Assembly: GCA_034434335.1 (NCBI GenBank)
Contig: DAOTZS010000133.1
Coordinates: 1-45,064, forward strand
From: Anaerolineae bacterium
GTDB taxonomy: Bacteria > Chloroflexota > Anaerolineae > CG2-30-64-16
DNA: 45,064 nucleotides
Direction: 5' to 3'
The notes under the pieces are model-generated. The model saw only the letters and a list, made by a program, of their open reading frames with translations. It did not search any database and had not been told where the DNA came from. Position numbers and translations under genes: made by a program. Below are positions 4,571-44,389 of the stretch, piece after piece. The first letter of the stretch is position 1; every line of letters starts with the position of its first letter.

Positions 4571-5386
4571 TTATTCGCCATGGTAGACAAGAGTAATGCC
4601 CAGTTCCCGACAACGCTCTCGCACCTCGTCACCGATGCTCATGGCGATCATAATGCCCTCTACTTCGACGCCAGGATTGAGCGAGCGAACAAGGGTGACC
4701 TTATCAGCCAGGCGGTCGACATCCTCCCACTCGCAGTAGCTCTTGACCTCGAAAACCGATATCTTCCCGTCCTGAGCCAGGATGTCGATCTCAAAATGCC
4801 GCTGGCCTGGCAATCCCACTACACCCTTTTCGTCCACGATCCTCTGGCGTAACCGAATCTGTTCAGGCTTGATGTCGGAACGGCGCAGCGCTACTCGTAG
4901 CGCACCGGCCACTACCTCTTCTAGCTTGCGCCCCGAACGCCGTTGCAGCCCTCCAACGGTAAGCTCTACCCAATCGTGCTCGTCCGCTATCATCTGGCGA
5001 AGGGCAGCAAACTGCTGATCAATCCCCTCGAAGCGTCGGTCAATCCCCTCGAAGCGTCGGTCAATCCCCTCGAAGCGCCTGTCTATCTCTTCGAAGCGTC
5101 GGTCAATCTGCTCAAAGCGCTTGTCAATTTGCTCGAAGCGCCTGTCTATCTCTTCGAAGCGTCGGTCAATCTGCTCGAAGCGCTCCTGGGTCTCCTGGCG
5201 GAAATGGCGCACTTCGCCGCGCAACTCCCGCAGTTCGCTGAGAACGGCCGCGAACTCCTCCTTGCTGACAAACGCCTTCAGAAAGGCTCGAAAGGCGCGC
5301 GGCTCCAGTTCCGGATTGCGCTCTAGCATATCCGGCAATTGCACCTCGAGGATATACAGGACTTCTTCATCCTTCAGTTTCAGCAT
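4571..5386 (-). CDS. PD-(D/E)XK nuclease-fold protein (DUF1626/PDDEXK_10-like C-terminus) with an N-terminal DUF3782-like coiled coil built from tandem heptads
   Basis: C-terminus has a D...E-x-K arrangement (HFEIDILAQDGKISVFEVKSY). The middle is FEQIDRR FEEIDRR FEQIDKR FEQIDRR FEEIDRR FEGIDRR FEGIDRR FEGIDQQ. Start moved to ATG 5386 (AAGGAG RBS), which lies downstream of a strong promoter at 5421-5449. The upstream 41 codons of ORF 4571..5509 would precede that promoter. Confidence 0.75.
   Translation of the reverse strand: MLKLKDEEVLYILEVQLPDMLERNPELEPRAFRAFLKAFVSKEEFAAVLSELRELRGEVRHFRQETQERFEQIDRRFEEIDRRFEQIDKRFEQIDRRFEEIDRRFEGIDRRFEGIDRRFEGIDQQFAALRQMIADEHDWVELTVGGLQRRSGRKLEEVVAGALRVALRRSDIKPEQIRLRQRIVDEKGVVGLPGQRHFEIDILAQDGKISVFEVKSYCEWEDVDRLADKVTLVRSLNPGVEVEGIMIAMSIGDEVRERCRELGITLVYHGE
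5019..5186. repeat. Eight tandem 21-bp units (with 63-bp higher-order periodicity) inside the nuclease gene
   Basis: Units TCAATCCCCTCGAAGCGTCGG (x2 identical), TCAATCCCCTCGAAGCGCCTG, TCTATCTCTTCGAAGCGTCGG, TCAATCTGCTCAAAGCGCTTG, TCAATTTGCTCGAAGCGCCTG, TCTATCTCTTCGAAGCGTCGG, TCAATCTGCTCGAAGCGCTCC. They encode the FExIDRR heptads on the minus strand. Confidence 0.95.
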
Positions 5387-5420
5387 CTCCTTTGCCTCCA
5401 CCTCTATCGGCCTCGGTTTT

Positions 5421-5449
5421 AGTATAGCATAATCACCCGCTTCAGGCAA
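5421..5449 (-). promoter_or_regulatory. Promoter of the PD-(D/E)XK nuclease gene
   Basis: Minus strand TTGCCT-17 nt-TGC-TATACT (extended -10). Confidence 0.55.
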
Positions 5450-5469
5450 CAGTTGGGCAACCTCGTGAT

Positions 5470-5498
5470 TTGACGCCCGCTGCCGTTGCTGGCATAAT
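5470..5498 (+). promoter_or_regulatory. Promoter of the ZnuA-like gene
   Basis: TTGACG-17 nt-CATAAT with TGG just upstream of the -10. Confidence 0.55.
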
Positions 5499-5551
5499 CC
5501 ACCGCGCATAAGCGCGCCATATTCTCACCGTAGAAAGGAAGTTGAAGGAAG

Positions 5552-8996: not shown

Positions 8997-9605
8997 AAGG
9001 TAACTCCGTTTGGCATTATGCCGTCACAGGCAGGATTATCGCGAGATGGGGACAGCGCGGCAGTATTACCTTGTTGCTCACAAGACACAAGGTATTAGGG
9101 CAACTTGCCAGGCAAATGTATGGTCATGGTTACGGGGATGGACTACATCAGGGCAGAGAGGCATGTTAATGCACTTTCTGCTCCACCCATGTATCTGACC
9201 GGAGTGTCTTCAAGGGTATCAAACGCAGCCCACCTGCGGCGTCCGAGCAATCGGGCAGGATGACGAATCAGAACGATGGGCATAGAAGGGCTTTTTCAGC
9301 ACCTCTAACGCGTCTTGCCTCCTGGCGCAATCATCGGCTGAGCATCTGTCGGTTTTTGATGATCTGGCCAGAGCCTGGGGAAAGCCTCTTCCGCGCCATG
9401 ATAGCCCTTCGCGCGGCTCCTGCCCCTTACAGCCAGCGATCCGCCGCTGTCGCTGGCTCAGCGGCCAGATAGAGGAGAAAGCAACGACCTCTTATGCGCC
9501 TTCTTGGGTTCGTCTCCTGGCAAGGCCCAGACGAGAAACTCAGCCCGATGAGGTTACAGGAAGCAGAAGGCGGAGACAGGCAGATGGACCTTTCTACGCA
9601 TAACG

Positions 9606-9634
9606 AGTATAGCACAAGGCCAGGTACACGTCAA
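9606..9634 (-). promoter_or_regulatory. Promoter of rho, implying a ~600-nt leader
   Basis: Minus strand TTGACG-17 nt-TGC-TATACT. It is the only strong match I found in the 730-bp feoC-rho spacer. Confidence 0.55.
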
Positions 9635-9729
9635 ATACGACCGGGCACGTAACCCAGATACAGAGGTCCTCTGTCAACCGTGATTTGAGGAGTAAGCGCC
9701 GGGCTTTAGCTGATAGGTAACCGTTACCT

Positions 9730-10038
9730 CTAGACGTTATGGGCGCCAGCCAGCGAGCGGGCTACCCGACGGCCCCTGGCTGTAAGGGAGAAAAGCTGGC
9801 CTGAGGACGGCGCGCTGGCAAGCCCGGCACAGAGCCCGGCCAGGCTGCACCCACTGCACGCCGGGACACAGTCGCTTTGAACCCGCAACAGGTATCCGTG
9901 CTGTGTCAAATCGTCAGCCATGGCCCTCACCAGCTCCTCGCTGACTTGCAGCCGGCTGGCCAGTTCGGTCGTAGGGTGAAGCCTGCCGTCATTCAGGATT
10001 GCCAATAACTGGGCTGTCAGGGTCTCATCTGCGGCCAT
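9730..10038 (-). CDS. FeoC-like winged-helix protein with a Cys cluster
   Basis: Lies 37 nt downstream of feoB. The N-terminal wHTH-like segment and CVPACSGCSLAGLC cluster resemble FeoC. Assignment is from architecture and context only. Confidence 0.55.
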   Translation of the reverse strand: MAADETLTAQLLAILNDGRLHPTTELASRLQVSEELVRAMADDLTQHGYLLRVQSDCVPACSGCSLAGLCAGLASAPSSGQLFSLTARGRRVARSLAGAHNV

Positions 10039-12153: not shown

Positions 12154-12417
12154 CTATTGGGCGCCGTCCAGGGGACGCACCAGCACCTTATCGGCCTCAG
12201 CCCGCCCCAGCGCGACCCGCACCCCCCGTACGGAGACAATCATCGGCCCATGGCCGTAGTTTTGGAGCACGGTAATCGGCGCTCCTACGGTGAACCCCAG
12301 GTTCGCCACACGGCTGCGAAAGCCACGCCCTCCCTGCAGGGAATGGACGATGGCGTGGCCGCCGGCCGGTACAGAGCTCAAGGTCTGTGGTGCTTCTGGC
12401 ATGTGGACTCTGCTCAT
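12154..12417 (-). CDS. feoA: FeoA family iron transport protein
   Basis: 87-aa SH3-like FeoA pattern (GFRSRVANLGFTVGAPITVLQN...PMIVSVRGVRVALGRAEADKVLV). Directly upstream of feoB. GGAGGGA RBS. Confidence 0.9.
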   Translation of the reverse strand: MSRVHMPEAPQTLSSVPAGGHAIVHSLQGGRGFRSRVANLGFTVGAPITVLQNYGHGPMIVSVRGVRVALGRAEADKVLVRPLDGAQ

Positions 12418-12430
12418 GGCTCCCTCCGTT

Positions 12431-12622
12431 GTAACTATTCAGGCGGTGACTGGAAGTCACCCTTTTGGGCCTGCGGCCAGTGGTCGGCCTTCGCCGACCT
12501 CTCTGGTGATGCACAAATAAAGGGTGACGGCCTCCGCCGACACCCCTCGGGCCGAGCCCTTCGGGGCGAGGCCTGGCACAAAGTGCCCAGGGAGGGCGAT
12601 TTCAATCGGCCTGAATAGTTAC
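12431..12622 (-). mobile_element. MITE-like structured element, copy 1 (192 bp, 14-bp TIR GTAACTATTCAGGC)
   Basis: Its reverse complement aligns end to end with 36484..36701. Terminal inverted repeats GTAACTATTCAGGC / GCCTGAATAGTTAC. No ORF of its own. Fills the fur-feoA spacer. Confidence 0.85.
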
Positions 12623-21308: not shown

Positions 21309-21510
21309 ACGCCCCAGAGCCGGACGCATGGGGAGCAGGGCCCAACGGCTAAAGTCTAGACGCGGGTGGGCGACGGCAGTGCCGTCGCCCACCCCGGCAG
21401 TGCCCTTGCCTGCCCACCCTCTTCTGGGGCTCGCAATGACCAGCAACACCCTATAGGAGGACTACCAACCCACTGCGAGGAAAAATACCCACCCTTGTGA
21501 GGGGAGCCAG

Positions 21511-21798
21511 GGGTGCGGGTCAATCCGCACAGTGTAGAAACCCCCTTAACTCGACACTAGTGCCGTGTTAAGCTAGATTCTGGCATTTTGCAGTCAGTGC
21601 GTTACCCCTCTCACCCCCTTTCCCCCGCTCTCCCCTCCCAGGGGAGAGCGGGGGAAATCCCAAGTGTGGGGGTTTCTGGGGCGGCGAAGCCGCCCCAGAA
21701 ACCCCCTTAATACCGATCTCCCCGCCCCCTGATAGGGGGCGGGGCCGGGGGTGGGGGTCAATCCGGAAAGTGTAGAATCCAGCTTTACAAAGCACTAG
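21511..21798. repeat. Hairpin-module element flanked by ~50-bp imperfect direct repeats
   Basis: Direct repeats GGGTGCGGGTCAATCCGCACAGTGTAGAAA...CACTAG (21511-21560) and GGGTGGGGGTCAATCCGGAAAGTGTAGAAT...CACTAG (21748-21798). Core hairpins CCCCCGCTCTCCCC-TCCCA-GGGGAGAGCGGGGG, GGGGGTTTCTGGGGCGGC-GAA-GCCGCCCCAGAAACCCCC and CCCCGCCCCC-TGATA-GGGGGCGGGG. Confidence 0.75.
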
Positions 21799-25267: not shown

Positions 25268-25496
25268 CTTTCTGTCTCCCTGGGCCTTCACTGCCCCTCA
25301 CCCCCTCTACCCCTCGGGACGTGGCCCTTGGCCTGCGGCCATGGGAGAAGGAAGAATAAACAAGAGAGGTTTTTGTGACGGCGGCCAAGGGCCACCGTCA
25401 CAAAAACCCTTTTCTCCTCCTCTCCTCTCCTGCCGCCAAAGGCGAGCGGGAGAGGAGAGGGGGCAGAGGGAGAGGTAAGGGCCTTGAGCGGCAGCT
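25268..25496 (-). repeat. Three-hairpin compound repeat, copy in the metY-metX intercistronic spacer
   Basis: Its reverse complement aligns with 39421..39641 across an outer stem plus three internal hairpins. Conserved loops CGCTCGCCTTTGGCGGCA and TGGCCGCAGGCCAAGG. Confidence 0.85.
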
Positions 25497-25519
25497 TTAG
25501 GGCCCCACCCCAACCCCCG

Positions 25520-27023: not shown

Positions 27024-27146
27024 CTCTCATCTTCCAGATCAAGTCTGCCGGAATTGGCACCCTAACGTAGCACAGGCCTCATTGCCATGTCTTACCGGGT
27101 TGCCGAGGCTTCATTGGGCCGGTCCCTCTGCCTCTCTGGATAAGAG
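27024..27146 (-). promoter_or_regulatory. SAM-I (S-box) riboswitch aptamer upstream of metY
   Basis: Minus-strand reading is CUCUUAUCCAGAGAGGCAGAGGGACCGGCCCAAUGAAGCCUCGGCAACC...GGUGCCAAUUCCGGCAGA...GGAAGAUGAGAG. This matches the SAM-I consensus, including P1 CUCUUAUC/GAUGAGAG. Confidence 0.88.
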
Positions 27147-32387: not shown

Positions 32388-33218
32388 ATGAGCGAATCCA
32401 CCGCGGAGATCCTGGCCATTGGCAGCGAGATCCTGGCCGGGGATGTGCTGGATACTAACTCTCACTGGCTCTGCCGGCAGTTGACCGCGCGCGGGCTGCG
32501 CGTGGTGCGCATTACGGCCCTACCGGATGATCCTGACGTGATCAGTGAGGCTCTGCGGGCCGCACTGCGCCGGGGCCCTTCCCTGATCATCACGTGTGGC
32601 GGCCTGGGGCCCACAGCGGACGATCTCACCCTGGCTGCCGTGGCGGCCGCCCTGGGCCGGCCGCTGAGCAAGGACCCTGCCGCGTGGGAGATGGTGCGGG
32701 GTTTCTACGCCCGTCTGTACGCCCGGGGAAAGGTTGCCACACCCGAGATGACAGCCGCGCGGGGCAAGATGGCCATCCTGCCCGAAGGCAGTGTGCCGCT
32801 GGCCAATGTGGTCGGTGCCGCCCCTGGTGTCCTGTTGGAGGAAGGGGGAACCACTATTGCCTGCCTCCCTGGCGTGCCGGCCGAGATGAAATGGATCTTC
32901 GAGCACTCCCTCTGGCCGCGGGTGGCGGCCCGGCTGGCAGCCCAGGTTTACGTAGAACGGATTATCCCTACGGACTGCCACGACGAATCGGTCATGGCAC
33001 CCGCGGTGGACCTGGTCGCCAGCCGCCACCCGGCTGTTTACGTCAAGTCTAGGGCCCAGGTGTATGGCGGGGAGGCCACCGATTTCGTCACCCTGGCCGC
33101 GCGCGCTGCGAGTGCGGCCCAGGCCGCAGCTCTGCTGGACGCAGCCGAAGCCGATCTGCGCCAGGTCCTGGCCGGGGTAGGCGTCCACACTGAACCTGCC
33201 CAGGAATCTATAGCCTGA
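32388..33218 (+). CDS. CinA-like molybdopterin-binding (MoCF_biosynth) protein lacking a PncC domain
   Basis: AEILAIGSEILAGDVLDTNSHWL...IITCGGLGPTADDLT is the CinA N-terminal domain pattern. Confidence 0.85.
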   Translation: MSESTAEILAIGSEILAGDVLDTNSHWLCRQLTARGLRVVRITALPDDPDVISEALRAALRRGPSLIITCGGLGPTADDLTLAAVAAALGRPLSKDPAAWEMVRGFYARLYARGKVATPEMTAARGKMAILPEGSVPLANVVGAAPGVLLEEGGTTIACLPGVPAEMKWIFEHSLWPRVAARLAAQVYVERIIPTDCHDESVMAPAVDLVASRHPAVYVKSRAQVYGGEATDFVTLAARAASAAQAAALLDAAEADLRQVLAGVGVHTEPAQESIA

Positions 33219-33224
33219 GACTTC

Positions 33225-34454
33225 CTACCTGCGCCGATACCACCACCATGCCCCCGCGCCGGCCAGGCCGGCTGCTGCTGCCGCGCCCAGCCCGATCGCC
33301 AGGCCGCGTCCTGCCGCGGAGGGAGGCTGGCCGGCGGCGGCAGCGGTTACAGCCTCCGCGGGGGCCGCGCTCGTGGGGGTTAGCGCGGCTTCGGCCGGCC
33401 GCGTTGCCGTCGGGGCCGCGGCGGCGGTCTCCCGGGCCGCGGCCGTGGCAAGCTCCTCGGGCACGGTGGCCACGGCCGTGGGGGTAAATATGGCTTCGGC
33501 CAGGGGCACTGGCGTTGGAGTGGGGGCCTCAGTTTCTCCGGCTGCTGTAGCCGTGGGGGTGAGGACCAGCTCCGCCAGCGGTGTTGCCTTTAGAGCCACT
33601 GCGGCGGTAGCCGTCTGCCTGACCGCTGCAAGGGTAGCAAGTTCCTCAGGCAAAGTGGCTGCGGCCGTGGGGGCGGGCAAGGCCTCGGCCGGGCCGGCCG
33701 CGGTCGGAGCTACTACAGCTGCCGCCTCACCGGCGGGCGTGGCCGTGGCAGCGCTGACGGCCGCTGCCGCGGGTGTGGGAGTTGCCCGCCTGGCGACAGC
33801 GGGGGTGGCGCTTATTACCGGCAGAGGTGTCGCAGGGCCCATAGCAGCCGGGGCCCCGGTCGGGCTGGCCTTGGGCAGGGGGCGAGTTAGCGCTCCTGGG
33901 GTGGGGATGACAATGCGTGGTTGCGGTTCGGGTGTCAGCCCCGGGCCGACGGTCGGCGTCGCCCCGATCGCTGCCGGCATAGCGACTGGCCGCGGCGCGG
34001 GGATCCACAGCCAGCGTCCCGCGTAGAGCCAACGTTTGGCGTGGAGCTGAAGCGGGTTGGCGCGCCACAGGTCGGCCACCGATACCCCTGTGTCCCGGGC
34101 CACGCTGTACCAGCTATCCCCTTCCTTCACCTGGTACCAGTAACCCTCAGGGCAGATCTGATCCAGCTGGGGTGGCATGGATGGCCGCCAGGGGATGAAT
34201 AGCCGGTCACCCACCCACAGCCAGTCATGGGGGTGAACGATGGCAGGGTTCAGGGCCTTCAGTTCGGCCACCGGGATGCCGGTGTACCAACTGATGCTGG
34301 ACCAGCTATCCCCTGGCTGGACTATGTAGTAATAGCCACCCTCAGCCGGGACAACACCCTCCTCGGCCAGGGCCCAGCCCGAAAGCCACAACCAGCCCAC
34401 TATAAGCCCCAATCCCGCCAACAGACGCAGATAGCGAAAAAGAGATATACGCAT
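33225..34454 (-). CDS. LysM-domain protein with a long Ala/Pro/Thr low-complexity region and a C-terminal membrane anchor
   Basis: Two LysM-like segments (YIVQPGDSWSSISWYTGIP, YQVKEGDSWYSVARDTGVS). About 250 aa of A/P/T-rich repeats. C-terminal hydrophobic tail plus WWWYRRR. ATG 34454 follows GGGAGGAG. Confidence 0.8.
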   Translation of the reverse strand: MRISLFRYLRLLAGLGLIVGWLWLSGWALAEEGVVPAEGGYYYIVQPGDSWSSISWYTGIPVAELKALNPAIVHPHDWLWVGDRLFIPWRPSMPPQLDQICPEGYWYQVKEGDSWYSVARDTGVSVADLWRANPLQLHAKRWLYAGRWLWIPAPRPVAMPAAIGATPTVGPGLTPEPQPRIVIPTPGALTRPLPKASPTGAPAAMGPATPLPVISATPAVARRATPTPAAAAVSAATATPAGEAAAVVAPTAAGPAEALPAPTAAATLPEELATLAAVRQTATAAVALKATPLAELVLTPTATAAGETEAPTPTPVPLAEAIFTPTAVATVPEELATAAARETAAAAPTATRPAEAALTPTSAAPAEAVTAAAAGQPPSAAGRGLAIGLGAAAAAGLAGAGAWWWYRRR

Positions 34455-34500
34455 GGGCTCCTCCCAGATCAAAGCCGTAGATACCCTGGTCAGCCGTCCT

Positions 34501-36483: not shown

Positions 36484-36701
36484 GTAATTATTCAGGCCGA
36501 TTGAAATCGCCCTCCCTGGGCACCTCGTGCCAGGCCTCGCCCCGAAGGGCTCGGCCCGAGGGGTGTCGGCGGAGGCCGACACCCCTCATGTGTGCATCAC
36601 CAGAGAGCAGCGAAGGCCGACCTCTGGCCGCAGGCCCCAAGAGGGTGACGCCTCGGGCGAGCCCTCGGCGTGGCCCTTCCAGTCACCGCCTGAATAGTTA
36701 C
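36484..36701 (+). mobile_element. MITE-like structured element, copy 2 (218 bp; 25-bp internal insertion relative to copy 1)
   Basis: GTAATTATTCAGGC...GCCTGAATAGTTAC. High identity to copy 1 by eye, with differences concentrated in hairpin loops. Located in the cstA leader. Confidence 0.85.
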
Positions 36702-36838: not shown

Positions 36839-38590
36839 ATGAACGCGATCTTTGTGTTGGTGCTGGCCGCCATCGGTATCGTCGTTGGCTATGGCGTCTA
36901 TGCCAAAGGTATTGACCGACGCATTATCCAGCCTGATCCCTCCAAAGCCACGCCTGCCAGGATGTATATGGACGGTGTGGACTTCATCCCCGCCAACCGT
37001 AATGTCCTCTTCGGCTACCAGTTCAAGTCCATCGCCGCCCTGGGTCCCATCCTGGGGCCGATCATCGCCGTCCAGTGGGGTTGGCTCCCGGCGCTGCTGT
37101 GGATCATCCTGGGCACCTTCTTCATCGGCTGGGTCCAGGACTACTCCAGCATCATCATGGGAGTCCGGGAGGAGGGGCAGACCTTCGGCGCCCTCAGTTA
37201 CCGCCTCATCTCCCCCCGGGCTCGCAACATCCTGCTGGCCTTCATCTACGTCTACCTCCTGATGATCATGGGTGCCTTCGGCATCCAGGTAGGTTTTAAT
37301 CTGCTCACCAACCCGGCCGTGCCCCTGGGGGTGATCATCGTCATCCTGGCAGGTCTGCTGGCCGGCCAGATGACCTACAAGTGGAAGCAGGACATCATCC
37401 TGACCACGGTGGTCACGGTGGTCGTGGCACTGATCGGCGTATGGGTGGGGACGCTGCCAGGGGTGAAGAATCTCTTCAATGCCATCTACGGCATCCAGAT
37501 GGTAGAAGGAAAGCCGGTCTCGCCTACCCTCTTCCTCCAGGTAACCCAGGCGCGCTTCATCGGCAGTTTGTTGGTGGTCATCTTCTGCTACCTGGGTGCC
37601 GTGCTGCCCATCTGGCGGTGGGCTCAGCCCATCAACTATGTCGCCTTCTGGATCGTCCTCCTGGGGATCCTGGGCGGCATCATTGGGCTCTTGATCGGAC
37701 ATCCTGGGATGGGAGACTTCCCGGCTGCCACAACATTCGTGACTGCCTCCGGACCCCTCTGGCCGATGTTGTTCGTGACCATCGCCTGTGGGGCCATCTC
37801 CGGCTGGCATAGCCTGGTCTCCTCGTCGGGTACAGCGCGTCAGTTGGAGAAGGAGACGGATGCCCTCTATGTGGGCGGCGGGGCCATGTTCCTGGAGATG
37901 GTCTTTGCCACCATTGCTTTCCTCACAGCCACCGTTGCCTTTGGCAGCTTCAAGGGGTATCAGGATGCCGGCGGTCCAGGGGCGGCGGCGGCCGTCTTCT
38001 CCAAGGGCCTCTCGGTCTTCCTGAACAACTGGGGGTTGGACAGCGCCTTGGGCCAGGGCTTCGGCGTGGCTTACGGCTCGGTGTTCCTCACCCTGATGGC
38101 GATGACCATCATGCACCTGGTGGTGCGCTTCATGCGGGTGGCCAGCGCCGAGGCGTTGGGCGACCGCTTCCCTGTCCTGCGCAACATCCACGTGGGCACC
38201 ATCATCGCCCTGGTCCTCACTCTCTTCCTGATCTGGATTGTGCCCTTCCTGCAGATCTGGGGCGTCTTTGGCGCGGCTAACCAGTTGATGGCCTCCCTGG
38301 CCCTGCTCCTCATCACCCTGTGGCTGATGTCAAAGGCCAAGAACTACCAGTGGACCTTCTGGCCCTTCGTCTTCATGTTCGTCACCACCGTGTTCGCGCT
38401 GCTCTGGTCGGCCTATGCGGCCTTCTTCCTCAATCTGCCCAAGCAGACGGGCTGGCAAGGTATCGTTGCCCAGGTGACCATCGGGGTGCTGGCCCTGCTG
38501 TTGGTGGTGCTGGCCGTGGTCCTGGTGGTGGATGGCATCGGGTCTATCCAGCGCTATCGGGCGGAGATGGCCAAGGCGGCGAGCCGGTAA
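36839..38590 (+). CDS. cstA: Carbon starvation protein A family transporter
   Basis: N-terminus ...VLFGYQFKSIAALGPILGPIIAVQWGWLPALLWIILGTFFIGWVQDY is a CstA hallmark. 583-aa polytopic protein. Confidence 0.92.
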   Translation: MNAIFVLVLAAIGIVVGYGVYAKGIDRRIIQPDPSKATPARMYMDGVDFIPANRNVLFGYQFKSIAALGPILGPIIAVQWGWLPALLWIILGTFFIGWVQDYSSIIMGVREEGQTFGALSYRLISPRARNILLAFIYVYLLMIMGAFGIQVGFNLLTNPAVPLGVIIVILAGLLAGQMTYKWKQDIILTTVVTVVVALIGVWVGTLPGVKNLFNAIYGIQMVEGKPVSPTLFLQVTQARFIGSLLVVIFCYLGAVLPIWRWAQPINYVAFWIVLLGILGGIIGLLIGHPGMGDFPAATTFVTASGPLWPMLFVTIACGAISGWHSLVSSSGTARQLEKETDALYVGGGAMFLEMVFATIAFLTATVAFGSFKGYQDAGGPGAAAAVFSKGLSVFLNNWGLDSALGQGFGVAYGSVFLTLMAMTIMHLVVRFMRVASAEALGDRFPVLRNIHVGTIIALVLTLFLIWIVPFLQIWGVFGAANQLMASLALLLITLWLMSKAKNYQWTFWPFVFMFVTTVFALLWSAYAAFFLNLPKQTGWQGIVAQVTIGVLALLLVVLAVVLVVDGIGSIQRYRAEMAKAASR

Positions 38591-38614
38591 AACTGGTCCG
38601 CTGACAGAGTCGGC

Positions 38615-38651
38615 GACCGGCAGGGCGGGCTCCCCACTCGCCCTGCCGGTC
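38615..38651 (+). terminator. Hairpin 25 nt after the cstA stop
   Basis: GACCGGCAGGGCG-GGCTCCCCACT-CGCCCTGCCGGTC, a 13-bp stem with no U-run. Confidence 0.35.
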
Positions 38652-38655
38652 CTGT

Positions 38656-38955
38656 GGGACAATCCTTGTGATTGCCCATTAGCATCAAGATAACGGTCAA
38701 AGCGCATGGGGCGACCACCGGTAGGGGCAGGGCTTGTCCCTGCCCCCCAGGGGGCGATTGGAAATCGCACCGGGTAGCCGAAGGCAATGCCTTCGGCTAC
38801 CCGGGTACGGGCGCGGCAGGGGAGGGTGCCCCCACCCGGCCTGCGGCCGCCCTCCCCCCATCCTCCCAGCCCTTGCGAGCGGAAGCTGGGAGGACAGGGG
38901 AGGGGAGCTATGGCCGCTAACTTGATGCCAATAGGGCAATCCTCGTGATTGCCCC
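38656..38955. repeat. 300-bp element bounded by ~34-bp inverted repeats that each contain a hairpin
   Basis: Left end GGGACAATCCTTGTGATTGCCCATTAGCATCAAG. Right end CTTGATGCCAATAGGGCAATCCTCGTGATTGCCCC. The interior has hairpins GGGGCAGGGCTTGTCCCTGCCCC and CGGGTAGCCGAAGGCAATGCCTTCGGCTACCCG, plus the GGCCTGCGGCC and CTTGCGAGCGG motifs shared with the three-hairpin family. Confidence 0.75.
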
Positions 38956-38960
38956 GTCAC

Positions 38961-39182
38961 GTCATTTGACAGGAGTTACGCACTTTGAGGCGTATCGCCC
39001 CATCCCTCTACCCTCTTGCCCGCAAGGCGGGGAAGAGGGATCGAGATTATAAGGGGTATTCCTGGGCGGCTTCGCCGCCCAGGAATACCCCTTTCAAAGG
39101 ATTCCCCCGCCCCCGATCGGGCGCGGGGGCCAGGAGGTGGGGGCACAGCGTAGTGCAACTGCATAACTCCTGTCATTTGACA
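38961..39182 (+). repeat. TIR-bounded hairpin element (TIR GACAGGAGTTAYGCA), copy A
   Basis: Left end GTCATTTGACAGGAGTTACGCA. Right end TGCATAACTCCTGTCATTTGACA. Central hairpin GGGGTATTCCTGGGCGGC-TTC-GCCGCCCAGGAATACCCC. Its reverse complement aligns with 43228..43390. Confidence 0.8.
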
Positions 39183-39205
39183 CTCCTCAGGGGATGTGCT
39201 ACACT
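39177..39205 (+). promoter_or_regulatory. Promoter of a small unit upstream of hisZ; the -35 is supplied by a repeat terminus
   Basis: TTGACA (the last bases of element 38961-39182)-17 nt-TGC-TACACT. Confidence 0.45.
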
Positions 39206-39318
39206 GGCGGTAACCTATGGGGAGGCGTTTTTGATGTACGGACAGACATCCCGGAGCCATCATCATTCGAGAGGGGGCAGGCGCACGGCATAGCCGACGT
39301 CTCATCAGCGCTTGCCCC

Positions 39319-39352
39319 AAGGACTGGTTGCATCTGCACCAGTCCTTTTTTG
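39319..39352 (+). terminator. Intrinsic terminator/attenuator in the hisZ upstream region
   Basis: AAGGACTGGT-TGCATCTGC-ACCAGTCCTT followed by TTTTTTG. Confidence 0.7.
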
Positions 39353-39420
39353 TTAACCTAAAGCGAGGATGGGGCAATTTGCCGGAAAAAAACCGGTTCA
39401 TACTTTTTGCGGTCGCTAGA

Positions 39421-39641
39421 ACTGCCGCCCAGGGCCCTCACCCCTCCCTCTGTCCCTCCCCTCCCCCGCTCGCCTTTGGCGGCAGGGGAGGGGAGGAGAG
39501 AAAAGGGTTTTTGCGGCGGCGGCCTTCGGCCGCCGCCGCAAAAACCCCCTCTTATTCCCCCCTCTCCCCTGGCCGCAGGCCAAGGGGAGAGGGGGGAATA
39601 AGAGGGGGTGAGGGGCAGTGACGGCCCGAGGGAGCAGAAAG
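39421..39641 (+). repeat. Three-hairpin compound repeat, copy in the hisZ leader
   Basis: Outer stem GCCCTCACCCCTC.../...GAGGGGGTGAGGGGC. Hairpins CCTCCCCTCCCC-loop-GGGGAGGGGAGG, GGGTTTTTGCGGCGGCGGCC-TTC-GGCCGCCGCCGCAAAAACCC and CTCTTATTCCCCCCTCTCCCC-TGGCCGCAGGCCAA-GGGGAGAGGGGGGAATAAGAG. Confidence 0.85.
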
Positions 39642-39682
39642 TGTTAACCAATTTTGAACCATCCCCTTGAAACTGGAGCAAT

Positions 39683-40960
39683 ATGGCACCTCAGTCCTTC
39701 TCCACCGACCGGCCGCTGCCCGAAGGTGTGCGCGATCTCCTCTTTGCTGACGCGGCCGCCTTCCGCCAGCTAGAGGCCACCCTGCGCCAGACCTGGGCCG
39801 CCTGGGGCTATCGTGAGATCATCCTGCCCACCTTTGAATACGCGGACACCCTGGCGACCGATGTGGGGGCGGAGATCGAAGCCGAGATGTACCGCTTTTT
39901 CGATCGCCATGGCCGTGCCCTGGCCCTGCGCCCCGACATGACCATCCCCACCGCCCGGGTCGTGGGCACCCGGCTGTATGATCAACCCCTGCCACTGCGC
40001 ATTGCTTATGTGGGCAGCGTTTTCCGTTATGAGCCGCCCCGGGCCGGCCGACAGCACGAATTCACCCAGGTGGGGGTTGAGCTCATCGGCGCGGCCGGCC
40101 CTGCTGCCGATGCCGAGGCAGTGGCCCTGGCTGTGGCAGCCCTCAACGCGGCCGGGCTGCCCCAATTTCGCATCACCCTCGGCCATGTGGGCTTCTTTCG
40201 TGGCCTGTTGGAGGCTCTGGCCTTGCCCGAAAAGTGGGCTCGCCGCGTACGCCAGGCCGTCAACCTCAAGGCCGAAGCGGAGCTGGAGCTCTTGATGGCC
40301 GAGGCAGGTCAGGTGCCGGTGCCGGCCCGGACAGCCCTGCTGGCCCTGCCCCGCCTGGCCGGCGATGTCACCGTGCTGGCCGAAGCCGAGGCGTACTGCC
40401 TCAACGCCGCCATGGCGGCCGCCCTGGCCGACCTGCGTGGCCTGGCCGAACTGCTCAGTGCCTACGGGGTGGCCGACGCGGTGAGCTACGACCTGGCCGA
40501 AGTGCGGGACCTGGGCTACTACACGGGAATCACCTTCGAGGGGTTTGCGCCGGGCCTGGGGTTCAACATCATCTCCGGCGGCCGCTACGATGAACTGATC
40601 GCCCACTTCGGCCCCTCTCTGCCAGCCGTGGGCTGGGCGCTGACCCTCGACCGCCTGCTGGTAGCGCGTGAGTTGCAGGGGATCAGCACGGCCGAGCCCA
40701 GGCCCGATGTGCTGCTCTCGGCCCACGGGTGCCCGGCCTGCCTGGCCTGGGCAGCTCAGGCCAGGGCGCGCGGGATAGTGGTGGAAGTGGACCCGCTGGG
40801 GCTGGAAGCGGAGCAACTCTGGCAGGCAGCTCAGGCGCGCGGCATCCCGCGCCTGGTGCTGCATCATACCCCACAGACCTTAATTGTGCGTGATAGCGAG
40901 GGCCAGCGGTTGCTGGCCACCGATGACTGGCAGGAGGTAGCACGATGGCGCAACCGTTGA
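39683..40960 (+). CDS. hisZ: ATP phosphoribosyltransferase regulatory subunit (HisRS paralog)
   Basis: Class II aaRS-like core (LPEGVRDLL..., MYRFFDRHGRALALRPDMTIPTARV, FRYE). Overlaps the hisG start by 16 nt. Confidence 0.9.
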   Translation: MAPQSFSTDRPLPEGVRDLLFADAAAFRQLEATLRQTWAAWGYREIILPTFEYADTLATDVGAEIEAEMYRFFDRHGRALALRPDMTIPTARVVGTRLYDQPLPLRIAYVGSVFRYEPPRAGRQHEFTQVGVELIGAAGPAADAEAVALAVAALNAAGLPQFRITLGHVGFFRGLLEALALPEKWARRVRQAVNLKAEAELELLMAEAGQVPVPARTALLALPRLAGDVTVLAEAEAYCLNAAMAAALADLRGLAELLSAYGVADAVSYDLAEVRDLGYYTGITFEGFAPGLGFNIISGGRYDELIAHFGPSLPAVGWALTLDRLLVARELQGISTAEPRPDVLLSAHGCPACLAWAAQARARGIVVEVDPLGLEAEQLWQAAQARGIPRLVLHHTPQTLIVRDSEGQRLLATDDWQEVARWRNR

Positions 40961-41595
40961 CCATCGCCTTGCCCAAAGGGCGCCTGACCGACGAAGCAGT
41001 GGCGTTTCTGAACCGGGCTGGATATCCTGTGCCGACCAACGGCTCAGAGGCTGGCTTTGGCCGCAAACTGGTCCTCTCCACCCCCGACGAACGTTTCCGG
41101 TTCATCCTGGCCAAGCCAGCCGATGTGCCGGTCTTCGTCGAATACGGCGCGGCCGACCTGGGCATCGCCGGCCTGGATGTGGTGCGCGAGGCGGAGCGCG
41201 ACGTCTACGAGCCGTTGCGATTGCCTTTCGGCTACTGCCGGTTGGTGGTAGCTGGCAAGGCCGATCGGCCTGAAAGGCCGCTACGGCTGGAACGCAGCCC
41301 GCGTGTCGCCACCAAGTTCCCCCGCCTGACCGAAGCCTTCTTCCGCAAGCGTGGCCTGGCGCCTGAGATTATCGTCATGGCCGGCTCGGTGGAGCTGGCT
41401 CCGCTGGTGGGCCTGGCCGATCTGGTGGTGGACCTGGTACAGACCGGTGCCACCCTGCGGGAGAACGGCCTGGTTGAGCTGCGGGTGGTGCTGGAGAGCC
41501 AGGCTGTGCTGATCGCCAACCGGGCCAGCTATCGGCTGCGCGCTCAGGAGGTGCGGCAGGTGATAGACGCTCTGGCCAATGTCGCGGGGGCGTAG
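40945..41595 (+). CDS. hisG: ATP phosphoribosyltransferase, short form
   Basis: LTIALPKGRL...DVPVFVEYGAADLGIAGLDV...DLVQTGATLRENGL; 216 aa short HisG, consistent with the presence of HisZ. Confidence 0.95.
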   Translation: MAQPLTIALPKGRLTDEAVAFLNRAGYPVPTNGSEAGFGRKLVLSTPDERFRFILAKPADVPVFVEYGAADLGIAGLDVVREAERDVYEPLRLPFGYCRLVVAGKADRPERPLRLERSPRVATKFPRLTEAFFRKRGLAPEIIVMAGSVELAPLVGLADLVVDLVQTGATLRENGLVELRVVLESQAVLIANRASYRLRAQEVRQVIDALANVAGA

Positions 41596-41725
41596 CGCCG
41601 CCGGGCTTCTTGAAATAGGCATTCTGGGCAGCAAAGCCGGCCAACAACCCCTTTGGCGGCAGGAGAAACGAACTTTGAGAGAGTAACCAGGCCCCCTGCT
41701 AAGGCGAATACCCCGGAATGAGGAA

Positions 41726-43111: not shown

Positions 43112-43142
43112 CAGCTATTTACAGCGAGGTCTGCAATGTCCC

Positions 43143-43217
43143 GTTCGTAGTAAGCCACGCAGCGCAGCGGAGTGGCGTCAGACGGCACTCCACTTCGTTG
43201 CGTGCCTGACTACGAAC
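43143..43217. repeat. Long imperfect hairpin 30 nt after the hisD stop
   Basis: GTTCGTAGT...CACGCAGCG..GGAGTG-GCGTCAGACG-GCACTCC..CGTTGCGTG...ACTACGAAC. Possible terminator or processing structure; no U-run. Confidence 0.55.
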
Positions 43218-43227
43218 ATATCATACG

Positions 43228-43390
43228 AGGAGTTACGCAGTTGCACTACGCTGTGCCCCCACCCCCAATTAGCCCCCACCCTCTGGGGGCGGGAGAATCC
43301 TTTGAAAAGGGTATTCTGGGCGGCTTCGCCGTCCAGAATACCCTATAATCTCGATCCCCTTTCCGCGTCTTGCGGGGAAGGGGGTAATAG
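43228..43390 (-). repeat. TIR-bounded hairpin element, copy B (one end degenerate, overlapping the HAD gene 3' end)
   Basis: AGGAGTTACGCAGTTGCACTACGCTGTGCCCCCACC...AGGGTATTCTGGGCGGCTTCGCCGTCCAGAATACCCT...CCCCTTTCCGCGTCTTGCGGGGAAGGGG is collinear with the reverse complement of copy A. Confidence 0.8.
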
Positions 43391-44389
43391 CGCCAATAGC
43401 TGATCGGGATGGTCCAGCACCAGGTCGGCACCCAGAGCACGGTAGAGCTGCTGCAGGCCAGGCTCCGCGGCGATAGCGATGGCCAACCAGCGCCGGCCTG
43501 CGTTGGCCCGCCGCGCGGCCAGCACATCGTCGGCGGTGTCACCCACGTAGGCAGCCACCAGACGCCTGTGGGGATCGAGCTGGTCGGCAGCCCGTTCGAG
43601 CAAATAGGGATGAGGTTTGAGCAGGGAGGGGCCGCCCGGGGTTCGGGCATGGAGCGCGTCATCCATGGTGGTGGCCACGGCGAAGAAACGCTCCAGGCCC
43701 AGGTGGCGCAGAGGGTAAGTCAATTCGAAACGGGTACGGCCGGTGGCAATGCCCAGGTGGGCGTGACGGCTGAGCGCGGCCAGGGTGGCCAGGGAGATGA
43801 GCAAACGCTCGCGCTCGACCATGCCAGGGCCCAGATAATAGCGGGCAGGATAGCCGTAGCCGAGCGCGAAGAGTTCCTGGCCCAGATAGATCTCCGAGAA
43901 GATGCGCTGCACCAGGTCGGTGGTGGCAGCATCCCCGGTGTGCCACACCAGATGCGCGTTGTGCCCGCCCGTGACCTGGCGCAGGCCGGCCAGCCCACCT
44001 CCTGCCGCGCGTACCTGAGGGATCAGCGCCTGCCAGTCGGGCAGGTGGGGGGCCAAGCCGGCCAGGGGGCTGGCCGCGCAACGTAAGGCCGCGACCAGAG
44101 CTTCCTGGCTGGGCCAATCCCGTTCGGGCAGGGGATGGGCGGCTGGCAGGCTGGCCACCAGGGCCTCCAGCAGCCCGGCTGTCAGATCCCAGTCGTCGTT
44201 GAACCCACCCATGAGCTTAAACTGGTCGTAGACGTCCCCCGTCATGGCCGGTGGCGTGAGGCCCAGCAGTTGCAGGTAATATGCCCCTGCCAGGGGTGCC
44301 GTGGCGCGATATGATTCGTGGACGTCTACCAGAGTGCCGTCCACGTCGAAGACAATGATTTGGGGCCGAGGAAACAGGTGATGGTTCAT
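43343..44389 (-). CDS. HAD-superfamily hydrolase with a large cap domain; last ~15 codons encoded by a repeat element
   Basis: Motif I IIVFDVDGTLVD and motif IV YVGDTADDV. 348 aa. Confidence 0.75.
   Translation of the reverse strand: MNHHLFPRPQIIVFDVDGTLVDVHESYRATAPLAGAYYLQLLGLTPPAMTGDVYDQFKLMGGFNDDWDLTAGLLEALVASLPAAHPLPERDWPSQEALVAALRCAASPLAGLAPHLPDWQALIPQVRAAGGGLAGLRQVTGGHNAHLVWHTGDAATTDLVQRIFSEIYLGQELFALGYGYPARYYLGPGMVERERLLISLATLAALSRHAHLGIATGRTRFELTYPLRHLGLERFFAVATTMDDALHARTPGGPSLLKPHPYLLERAADQLDPHRRLVAAYVGDTADDVLAARRANAGRRWLAIAIAAEPGLQQLYRALGADLVLDHPDQLLALLPPSPQDAERGSRL

Follow-up and report, generated by a model that had tools for sequence, protein, structure and literature searches.

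A cstA-hisZ spacer in an Anaerolineae bacterium, probably a native his leader region invaded by three MITE-like elements

Bacterial chromosomes carry several kinds of short palindromic repeat. [quoted passage not shown] Repetitive extragenic palindromes (REPs) preceded by a GTAG tag have been catalogued by Di Nocera et al. and reported in Chloroflexi (PMC3733652). Among regulatory leaders, histidine (his) attenuators are represented in Proteobacteria by the Rfam family RF00514 and have been proposed in some Firmicutes (PMC9413887). All of these bear on a stretch of 45,064 nucleotides (nt) from an Anaerolineae bacterium (contig DAOTZS010000133.1; hereafter the window), and in particular on the 1092-nt spacer between cstA (36839-38590) and hisZ (39683-40960), which a previous examination of the letters alone (the sequence-only reading) had described as a nest of four hairpin elements. 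The window is chromosomal, with approximately 61% G+C and housekeeping genes that include rpsB, tsf, pyrH, uppS, cdsA, rho, feoB, fur, metW and hisZ/G/D. The best relatives of its HisZ are proteins of metagenome-assembled genomes (MAGs) named Chloroflexi or Anaerolineae, and a HisZ of identical sequence was seen on short metagenome contigs only.

We consider it probable that the spacer is a native region, comprising the cstA terminator and the his leader, that has been invaded by three MITE-like elements (A, B1 and C), which occupy about 820 nt of it. Loci fetched for comparison are given L numbers; L015 is a close relative, and the motif mentioned below is the 11-nt sequence GGCCGCAGGCC. The features of the spacer are as follows.

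38615-38651, plus strand: hairpin directly 3′ of the cstA stop codon, a perfect 13-bp inverted repeat
38656-38955, unstranded: element A, a 300-bp multi-hairpin repeat (inverted-repeat scan), absent from L015
38962-38969, unstranded: left target-site duplication of B1, 8-bp TCATTTGA, read from the sequence
38970-39172, unstranded: element B1, a 203-bp MITE with 13-bp TIRs CAGGAGTTACGCA / TGCATAACTCCTG and three internal hairpins
39173-39180, unstranded: right target-site duplication of B1, TCATTTGA, overlapping the first four bases of the his -35 box
39177-39205, plus strand: sigma-70-type promoter of the his leader, TTGACA-17-TACACT, a 10/12 match with a TG extension
39234-39293, plus strand: leader open reading frame (ORF) MYGQTSRSHHHSRGGRRTA and stop, with a run of three His codons and, 8 nt upstream, GGAGG
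39294-39352, plus strand: leader RNA stem and intrinsic terminator; GGGGCAGGCGC (within the leader ORF) pairs with GCGCTTGCCCC
39319-39352, plus strand: intrinsic terminator, AAGGACTGGT..ACCAGTCCTT followed by T6
39364-39666, unstranded: element C, long form, ~303 bp, with TIRs cGAGGATGGGGCAATTTG.. / ..CCAATTTTGAACCATCCCc, a three-hairpin core (39421-39641) and the motif at 39571-39581

In L015, HisZ is 91% identical and the synteny of cstA and hisZ is the same, with a spacer of just 271 nt. BLAST aligns this locus with the window in three blocks (L015 6-455 with 38175-38629, 493-682 with 39175-39363, and 678-2616 with 39668-41600), leaving no counterpart of 38630-39174 or of 39364-39667 at junctions that are otherwise collinear, such that A, B1 and C are all absent. 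The short spacer nevertheless holds the first hairpin, the TTGACA-17-TACACT promoter, a leader ORF with His codons, the conserved stem, the intrinsic terminator and the hisZ ribosome-binding site. Because it keeps both segments, and more distant relatives keep the leader, 38615-38651 and 39177-39352 are, as judged by this comparison, native regulatory DNA and not repeat elements. The hairpins, the TIR-bounded elements and the repeat nest described previously are real, and two of the four supposed elements are native DNA conserved in relatives.

The unit at 39177-39352, a promoter, mini-ORF and terminator that had been counted among the repeats, proves to be the his leader, which is conserved in L015 (497-672), L016 (about 9818-9990) and L017 (about 9634-9812). 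Its promoter is conserved in all three. The L015 counterpart of the leader ORF MYGQTSRSHHHSRGGRRTA reads MYWKLLRSHHHTSGGRRTA, and L016 and L017, whose HisZ is 77% identical, keep a leader containing ..SHH.. or ..SHHH.. and ending in ..GRRTA/G, together with an invariant terminator. Across the relatives the leader ORFs comprise 17-19 codons with SHH(H) and are followed by an 11-bp stem and then the terminator, directly upstream of hisZGD. Folding the four-species alignment gave 30 pairs, and neither the terminator stem nor the T-run varies among the species. On the strength of the His codons, the terminator and this conservation, 39177-39352 is most likely a ribosome-mediated histidine leader-peptide attenuator of hisZGD. 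No convincing antiterminator pairing was found in the four-species fold. The Rfam His_leader model RF00514 gave no match at its gathering threshold, nor at E ≤ 10 among the matches listed, and a full-text literature search returned no description of a his leader attenuator in Chloroflexi. More generally, no curated structured RNA family of Rfam 15 reaches its gathering threshold in the spacer, where gathering and permissive thresholds alike yielded only generic long-hairpin (miRNA-precursor) noise, far below threshold, on both strands. A known structured RNA, including the proteobacterial His leader model, was rejected on this result.

The other native segment is the 13-bp-stem hairpin at 38615-38651, whose presence the inverted-repeat scan confirmed. 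L015 has a hairpin at the same position in which both arms are changed (GACAGGGCGGG/CCCGCCCTGTC), and no second copy of the window's hairpin was found within the window. It is probably a terminator or stabiliser of the cstA 3′ end.

The inserted elements belong to families with further copies, of which the following lie elsewhere in the window.

12431-12622, unstranded: D2, second copy of family D, 94% identical to D1 over a 124-nt repeat arm, lacking a 27-nt hairpin and carrying the motif
21571-21786, unstranded: B3, a distant relative of family B (65-74% identity) with the same three-hairpin layout and GGCGGC-GAA-GCCGCC tip and different TIRs (GCTAGATTCTGGCATTTT..)
25268-25505, unstranded: C2, a family C copy that is short and more degenerate, 81% identical to C1 (the spacer copy) and carrying the motif
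36484-36701, unstranded: D1, a MITE of family D with TIR GTAAYTATTCAGGC, carrying the motif
43227-43386, unstranded: B2, a family B copy with one end only, downstream of hisD

Element B1 shows the clearest signature of insertion. TIR pairs had been proposed to bound 38656-38955 and 38961-39182; both were found by the scan (the second at 38961-39181), and the edges of B1 are here revised to 38970-39172, at which position the flanking duplication is perfect (8/8) and has a single counterpart in L015, tATTTGAcac. A metagenome scan with the conserved end of B1 recovered 16 loci, mostly from a sample that also holds this organism's his contig. Nine further copies of the family were found in metagenome contigs, several of them complete at about 200 bp and with the same TIRs, and the TIRs CAGGAGTTACGCA / TGCGTAACTCCTG recur in 8 or more copies. 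Duplications of 7 bp flank copies in L028 (TAATTGA, 7/7), L030 (TTAGAAC, 7/7) and L025 (TTATAGA/TTATTGA, 6/7). The three perfect B target sites (TCATTTGA, TAATTGA and TTAGAAC) are A+T-rich, in contrast to the G+C-rich targets of family D, and a preference of this kind, combined with selection against insertion in genes, may lead to a pile-up of elements around promoters and terminators.

Several observations were made beside other B copies. Next to B3, in a 641-nt spacer upstream of a major facilitator superfamily transporter gene, a 58-nt direct repeat (78% identical; 21503-21560 and 21741-21798) matches the right end of B3 and looks like a solo end or a truncated second copy. Beside B2, a repeated palindrome with GTAG...CTAC ends (CGTAGTAAGCCACGCAGCG...CGTGCCTGACTACG) occurs at 43145-43179 and again at L025 10964-11015, and may be a further REP-like family. 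Downstream of hisD, the identical-HisZ contig L001 (3585-3900) carries a different mosaic from the window (43112-43400), with the B end elsewhere and joined to a C-type right end bearing GGCCACAGGCC, which looks like a strain-level rearrangement of elements.

Family D, which is absent from the spacer, has GTAACTATTCAGGC TIRs at both ends and target duplications of 8 bp in L025 (CCAGGCCA, 8/8) and of at least 7 bp in L008. A scan of a genome collection with a 22-mer from the D end located copies in Anaerolineae, Thermoflexus and Chloroflexota MAGs; matches in Paraburkholderia and Verrucomicrobiota MAGs were discarded as isolated 22-28-nt matches with no surrounding element. Contigs of the fur locus were compared for strain polymorphism, and D2 was fixed among them. 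In L037 (~2075), following an identical fur and D2, an alpha-L-fucosidase gene replaces feoA/feoB at the right edge of D2 (window 12431). This switch in synteny exactly at an element boundary may reflect either recombination between D copies or an assembly chimera.

Element C lies downstream of the his terminator and ahead of the hisZ ribosome-binding site, and would therefore be part of the read-through 5′ untranslated region. Its three-hairpin core at 39421-39641 was found as proposed previously, with stems that include a perfect 27-bp and a perfect 20-bp inverted repeat in the scan. The full element is longer, at ~39364-39666: copies in L032 and L022 have the same outer segments, including ..GTGTTAACCAATTTTGAACCATCCC, repeat coverage extends over 39367-39665, and the ends carry GGGATGGTTCAA-type TIRs. 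Metagenome contigs end inside C or at its edge. At the empty site of L015, CTGAAG aligns with both 39358-63 (CTAAAG) and 39667-72 (TTGAAA). GTTAAC(C), which occurs at 39349 and 39644, was considered as an alternative target duplication and rejected, as the L032 copy has the same GTGTTAACCAATTTTGAACCATCCC as its own end. Families B and C and the B relative B3 have a common three-hairpin layout and a similar central hairpin, joined to different TIRs. A different repeat, with TIR CGTAACGA, duplication TTAACT and core ..GACCGGTCTCCTGACCGAGCCAC.., occupies the same post-terminator site in L017, a relative named HGW-Chloroflexi-1 (9813-9975), and this spot has therefore been colonised independently. 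A further copy of the CGTAACGA-TIR repeat lies upstream of the his promoter in the same relative (9330-9480).

Element A is the least clear of the spacer elements. Its core (38675-38935) is bounded by TIRs (CCCATTAGCATCAAG.. / ..CTTGATGCCAATAGG) with arms of about 29 nt that are 79% complementary, and both of its ends have a REP-like hairpin, GGGCAATC-CTYGT-GATTGCCC. A GTAG-tagged REP lies at 38721-38745 and the motif at 38838-38848. Partial, rearranged copies with 75-97% identity occur in L030 and L025. Among the GTAG-GGGC-NNNN-CTTGT-NNNN-GCCC hairpins of A and its L030 relative, five of six have GTAG immediately 5′.

Element A gives rise to the first of the alternatives to be weighed, a REP/BIME (bacterial interspersed mosaic element) system in which the palindromes would be spread by a REP-associated tyrosine transposase (RAYT), an IS200/IS605-like enzyme acting on single-stranded hairpins, and in which the spacer would be an interspersed mosaic. 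The tagged hairpins of A and L030 (5/6) are of a type known in Chloroflexi (PMC3733652), and the mosaic, rearranged pieces of A in L030 and L025 resemble BIMEs. Against this, the TIRs of B and D are clear and their 7-8 bp duplications perfect, and movement of the REP/RAYT type leaves no such duplications; in addition, most hairpins of B, C and D bear neither the GTAG nor the CGTC tag, and the window encodes no Y1 transposase. We regard this alternative as unlikely. The TIRs and duplications likewise exclude IS200/IS605-derived palindrome-associated elements, which have subterminal hairpins only. The MITE features that were tested yielded TIRs, small (190-303 bp), non-coding, multi-copy units and an empty site in L015, together with fixed-length duplications in B and D. 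A Pfam search of the ORFs overlapping the spacer gave no match, and Pfam assigned housekeeping functions only among 30 window genes, with no transposase, RAYT or Y1 transposase. When folded as single-stranded DNA, the three spacer elements score far below dinucleotide shuffles (z = -10.1 for A, -10.9 for B1 and -11.9 for C), and metagenome assemblies break at element edges.

The second part of the sequence-only reading concerned motifs that different elements appeared to share. The motif GGCCGCAGGCC occurs exactly five times in the window, at 12468-78, 25330-40, 36626-36, 38838-48 and 39571-81, in agreement with the claimed count and confinement to repeats, with two of the coordinates corrected by 1. 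The expectation is 0.16, and none of 100 shuffles reaches five. Nine matches were counted in ~109 kb of this organism's DNA, all of them in repeat elements and eight in the 19% scored as non-coding; the ninth falls in an ORF call (12157-12618) that overlaps D2 and that we judged to be spurious from its placement between two minus-strand genes. The motif is well in excess of chance and, in this DNA, restricted to non-coding repeats. The five sites represent three independent families, namely the C1/C2 pair, the D1/D2 pair and A. When the longest word shared by two elements was compared with shuffles, A-C (14 nt; 2/500) and C-D (13 nt; 6/500) were beyond chance and other element pairs were unremarkable; the 11-mer shared by A and D is by itself not beyond chance (50/500), and dinucleotide-shuffled elements share words of 9-10 nt on average.

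In every case GGCCGCAGGCC forms the tip of a stem composed of a pyrimidine run and a purine run, and is itself a 4-bp GGCC/GGCC mini-stem with a 3-nt loop (GGCC-GCA-GGCC). Module sharing was tested by adding copies, and the tip persists in A, C and D. All six C-type copies seen have it, one of them with the loop flipped (L032) and another as the ACA variant GGCCACAGGCC (L001), and so do three A-type modules at two loci, with a tandem duplicate in L025. Five of eight aligned D copies (D1, D2, L025, L012 and L007) have it exactly, the others being a single-base variant (GGCCGCAAGCC, L011), a flipped variant (L014) and a degenerate copy (L008); AGCCCGCGGCC is a further variant on record. A second module of about 25-31 nt, M2 (GCCCCGA(A)GGGCTCGGCCC(C)GAGGGG), occurs in this organism's D copies and beside the motif in a C-like copy. 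M2 is absent from the D copies of other MAGs, and the 29-nt block that holds the 25-nt M2 has been added to D in this organism only, a distribution that indicates gain of the module or its exchange between families. Hairpin modules therefore appear to move, or to be copied, between families. A term search of two MITE reviews (PMC10969869, PMC3184786) met with no mention of modules shared across families in the text that it covered.

Other motifs named as shared did not withstand the same scrutiny. CCGCTCGC-type loops occur at chance frequency (six found, 4.1 expected, a count that 30 of 100 shuffles reach), and GGCGGC-GAA/TTC-GCCGCC tips were found in B1, B2 and B3 only, as expected from the ordinary homology of related copies. 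The notion of a modular superfamily built from common hairpin cassettes is therefore upheld insofar as the GGCCGCAGGCC tip and M2 cross families, but A, B, C and D have four different TIRs and, judged by these ends, are distinct MITE families and not one assembled superfamily. A common protein or RNA partner recognising the conserved loops had also been suggested; nothing points to one, and within a family the strand orientation of a loop changes freely from copy to copy.

These flips form part of a broader pattern of change within the elements. Among B copies the central loop is GAA or TTC at about 5:5 and the third loop is CTT or AAG at 4:5, in all combinations with the central loop; D loops flip between GGAG and CTCC and between GAAG and CTTT, and the motif loop itself is flipped in L032 (GCA/TGC) and L014 (ACA/TGT). 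Comparison of five C copies shows changes on both sides at 6 of the 20 pairs of the central hairpin, with 16-20 perfect pairs the usual state, and the L022 copy has a matching 3-nt deletion in both arms. Whole hairpins may also be present or absent with clean edges, as with the 27-nt hairpin found in D1 and not in D2 and the central hairpin missing from the L030 B copy. The 27-nt hairpin was initially taken for an insertion in D1 and is now considered a probable deletion in D2, the D copies of other MAGs also carrying it. Template switching is known to create stems that are perfect, to introduce compensatory changes of several bases and to invert loops (PMC8794818), and mutation of this type, together with module exchange, fits the loop flips and paired stem changes better than would a partner that reads the loop. 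If a partner read the loop single-stranded and on one strand only, such flips would not be tolerated; they are compatible with recognition of the duplex palindrome TGGCC-N3-GGCCA.

Three further explanations of the shared modules were considered. The hairpins might constitute an independent layer of very small mobile elements that insert into MITE carriers, in the manner of the small dispersed repeats of cyanobacteria. Those repeats, associated with the work of Elhai et al. in 2008, are reportedly very short, hairpin-associated and nested inside larger repeats. Clean presence or absence of the 27-nt D1 hairpin, the central hairpin of the L030 B copy, the M2 block and the tandem motif module of L025 would be expected from such a layer. 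However, the occurrence of the 27-nt hairpin in D copies of other MAGs makes its absence from D2 more likely a deletion, no module was seen alone outside a larger element in the DNA examined, and slippage deletion combined with template-switch copying gives the same patterns without dedicated mobility; independent mobility of the hairpins accordingly seems rather unlikely to us. The original proposal, a superfamily of shared cassettes with a common partner, protein or RNA, that reads their conserved loops at the level of the host or the element, draws on the retention of the GGCCGCAGGCC tip across three families whose ends are unrelated, and also in D copies of several MAGs, on the 13-bp palindrome TGGCC-N3-GGCCA, which is of the kind used by dimeric DNA-binding proteins, and on the absence of the motif from coding DNA in about 109 kb. 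Set against these are the strand flips between copies, which include the motif loop (L032 and L014), the tip variants GGCCACAGGCC, GGCCGCAAGCC and AGCCCGCGGCC, and the attribution of the other claimed motifs to chance or within-family homology; moreover, the window contains no candidate partner gene and no Rfam family above threshold. We consider this proposal unlikely. An artefact of G+C-rich DNA with purine/pyrimidine skew, to which the chance frequency of CCGCTCGC and the 9-10-nt words shared by shuffles lend some plausibility, is largely refuted and of negligible probability, given an 11-mer that is found five times where 0.16 is expected and that is missing from confirmed coding DNA, and A-C and C-D words beyond nearly all shuffles.

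We favour the reading of the spacer as native DNA invaded by MITE-like elements, and a number of observations weigh against it. No autonomous insertion sequence with TIRs matching the B, C or D ends was found in the window, in 35 fetched loci or in viral contigs, and in the fetched loci every TIR pair of B and D spans just about 190-220 bp. C has an imperfect target duplication, as read from its flanks, and for A none is demonstrable. The REP-like hairpins of A carry GTAG tags, and GTAG-tagged REPs elsewhere in bacteria are moved by RAYT tyrosine transposases, not by DDE enzymes (PMC3733652). With regard to the interiors, template switching is deduced from mutation patterns only, and the block GGTCGGCGAAGGCCGACC-CTGGCCGCAGGCC, which contains the motif, ranks second in conservation among the parts of D compared across MAGs and could reflect functional constraint and not neutral copying. 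The last of these points admits a bolder possibility, which we hold tentatively and consider unlikely: hairpin cassettes might be a separately evolving layer passed between MITE scaffolds whose ends are unrelated, and the GGCCGCAGGCC tip and neighbouring GGTCGGCGAAGGCCGACC hairpin of D might be selected as a binding site, such that sharing would reflect function. The binder would in that case be a host or transposon protein, acting as a dimer on TGGCC-N3-GGCCA, or a recogniser of single-stranded DNA hairpins, and would function in transposition or replication in thermophilic Anaerolineae.

The preferred reading, invasion of a native leader region by MITE-like elements, can be formulated as follows. 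The ancestral cstA-hisZ spacer would have been a regulatory region of about 270 nt, with the cstA hairpin, the promoter, a leader ORF with three His codons and the terminator. Three non-autonomous elements of families A, B and C would then have inserted in this lineage, A and B1 between the cstA hairpin and the -35 box and C downstream of the attenuator terminator, ahead of the hisZ ribosome-binding site. None of these insertions has disrupted the promoter, leader, terminator or ribosome-binding site. The elements might be moved in trans by DDE-type transposases encoded elsewhere that recognise family-specific TIRs, with staggered cuts giving rise to the 7-8 bp duplications. Their interiors are stacks of G+C-rich palindromes, and template switching at replication, or recombination between arms, may keep these palindromes perfect, flip loops and delete or add hairpins. 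The same process might occasionally copy a hairpin from one family into another, which would explain the GGCC-GCA-GGCC tip and the few modules found in families with unrelated ends. The cross-family motif is real, and is best explained by copying and maintenance at the level of the hairpin, in preference to a common partner.

A number of other features were observed in the window. Six ORFs of 87-153 amino acids (aa) run through repeats (12157-12618 and 38985-39293 on the plus strand; 38330-38770, 38697-38960, 38976-39401 and 39358-39681 on the minus strand); they have no family match where tested and atypical codon-position G+C, and are likely spurious. An S-adenosylmethionine (SAM) riboswitch (RF00162, 83 bits) at 27024-27146 on the minus strand presumably controls the gene on its left, also on the minus strand, in the met region. 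The minus-strand ORF 4571-5509 (312 aa, no Pfam match) contains about 10 tandem 21-nt (7-codon) repeats at 4987-5204 and possibly encodes a coiled-coil. A local G+C peak of 73% at 33001-34000 coincides with internal, low-complexity 60-nt repeats in a minus-strand LysM-domain ORF (33225-34472).

Repeats of this kind have practical consequences: they break metagenome assemblies of the lineage exactly at element edges, can create false ORFs that mislead gene callers, and can pass for regulatory RNAs. Once told apart from them, the his leader becomes a well-defined candidate attenuator of the leader-peptide type in Anaerolineae. The copies provide a natural series of long perfect palindromes that diverge by paired changes, matched indels and loop flips, useful for testing template-switch mutation against selection on structure, and the fact that one hairpin tip recurs in families whose ends are unrelated poses a small, testable question of module exchange or shared constraint among MITEs.

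Compared with known systems, the leader shares with described his attenuators a His-codon ORF, a conserved stem and an intrinsic terminator upstream of his genes, and differs from them in its lack of an RF00514 match, its two to three His codons and its Anaerolineae lineage. The elements share with bacterial MITEs the size, non-coding character, TIRs and short target duplications given above, as well as dispersed intergenic copies, strong folding, empty sites and insertion into operon leaders without destroying them, as described in two reviews (PMC3184786, PMC10969869). They differ in that no parent insertion sequence was found for them in the DNA searched, in interiors made of long perfect G+C-rich palindromes, and in modules that recur across unrelated TIRs. 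With REPs, their REPIN arrangements and BIMEs (PMC3733652, PMC2817692, PMC3116915) they have in common G+C-rich extragenic palindromes in mosaics and, in A, GTAG hairpins, whereas B and D have TIRs and duplications, most hairpins are untagged and the window holds no RAYT. Pneumococcal BOX elements are likewise modular, with strong stem-loops and conserved ends that enclose internal modules of variable number or presence (PMC3049150), but BOX is one family with fixed boxA/boxC ends, while the modules described here cross families with different ends. In contrast to the small dispersed repeats of cyanobacteria, no solitary copies were seen here, and the modules are hairpin tips and stems and not 21-27-nt units with flanks of their own. 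The MITE families are new and their kind is familiar; the sharing of modules across families is a small new wrinkle and not a new kind of element.

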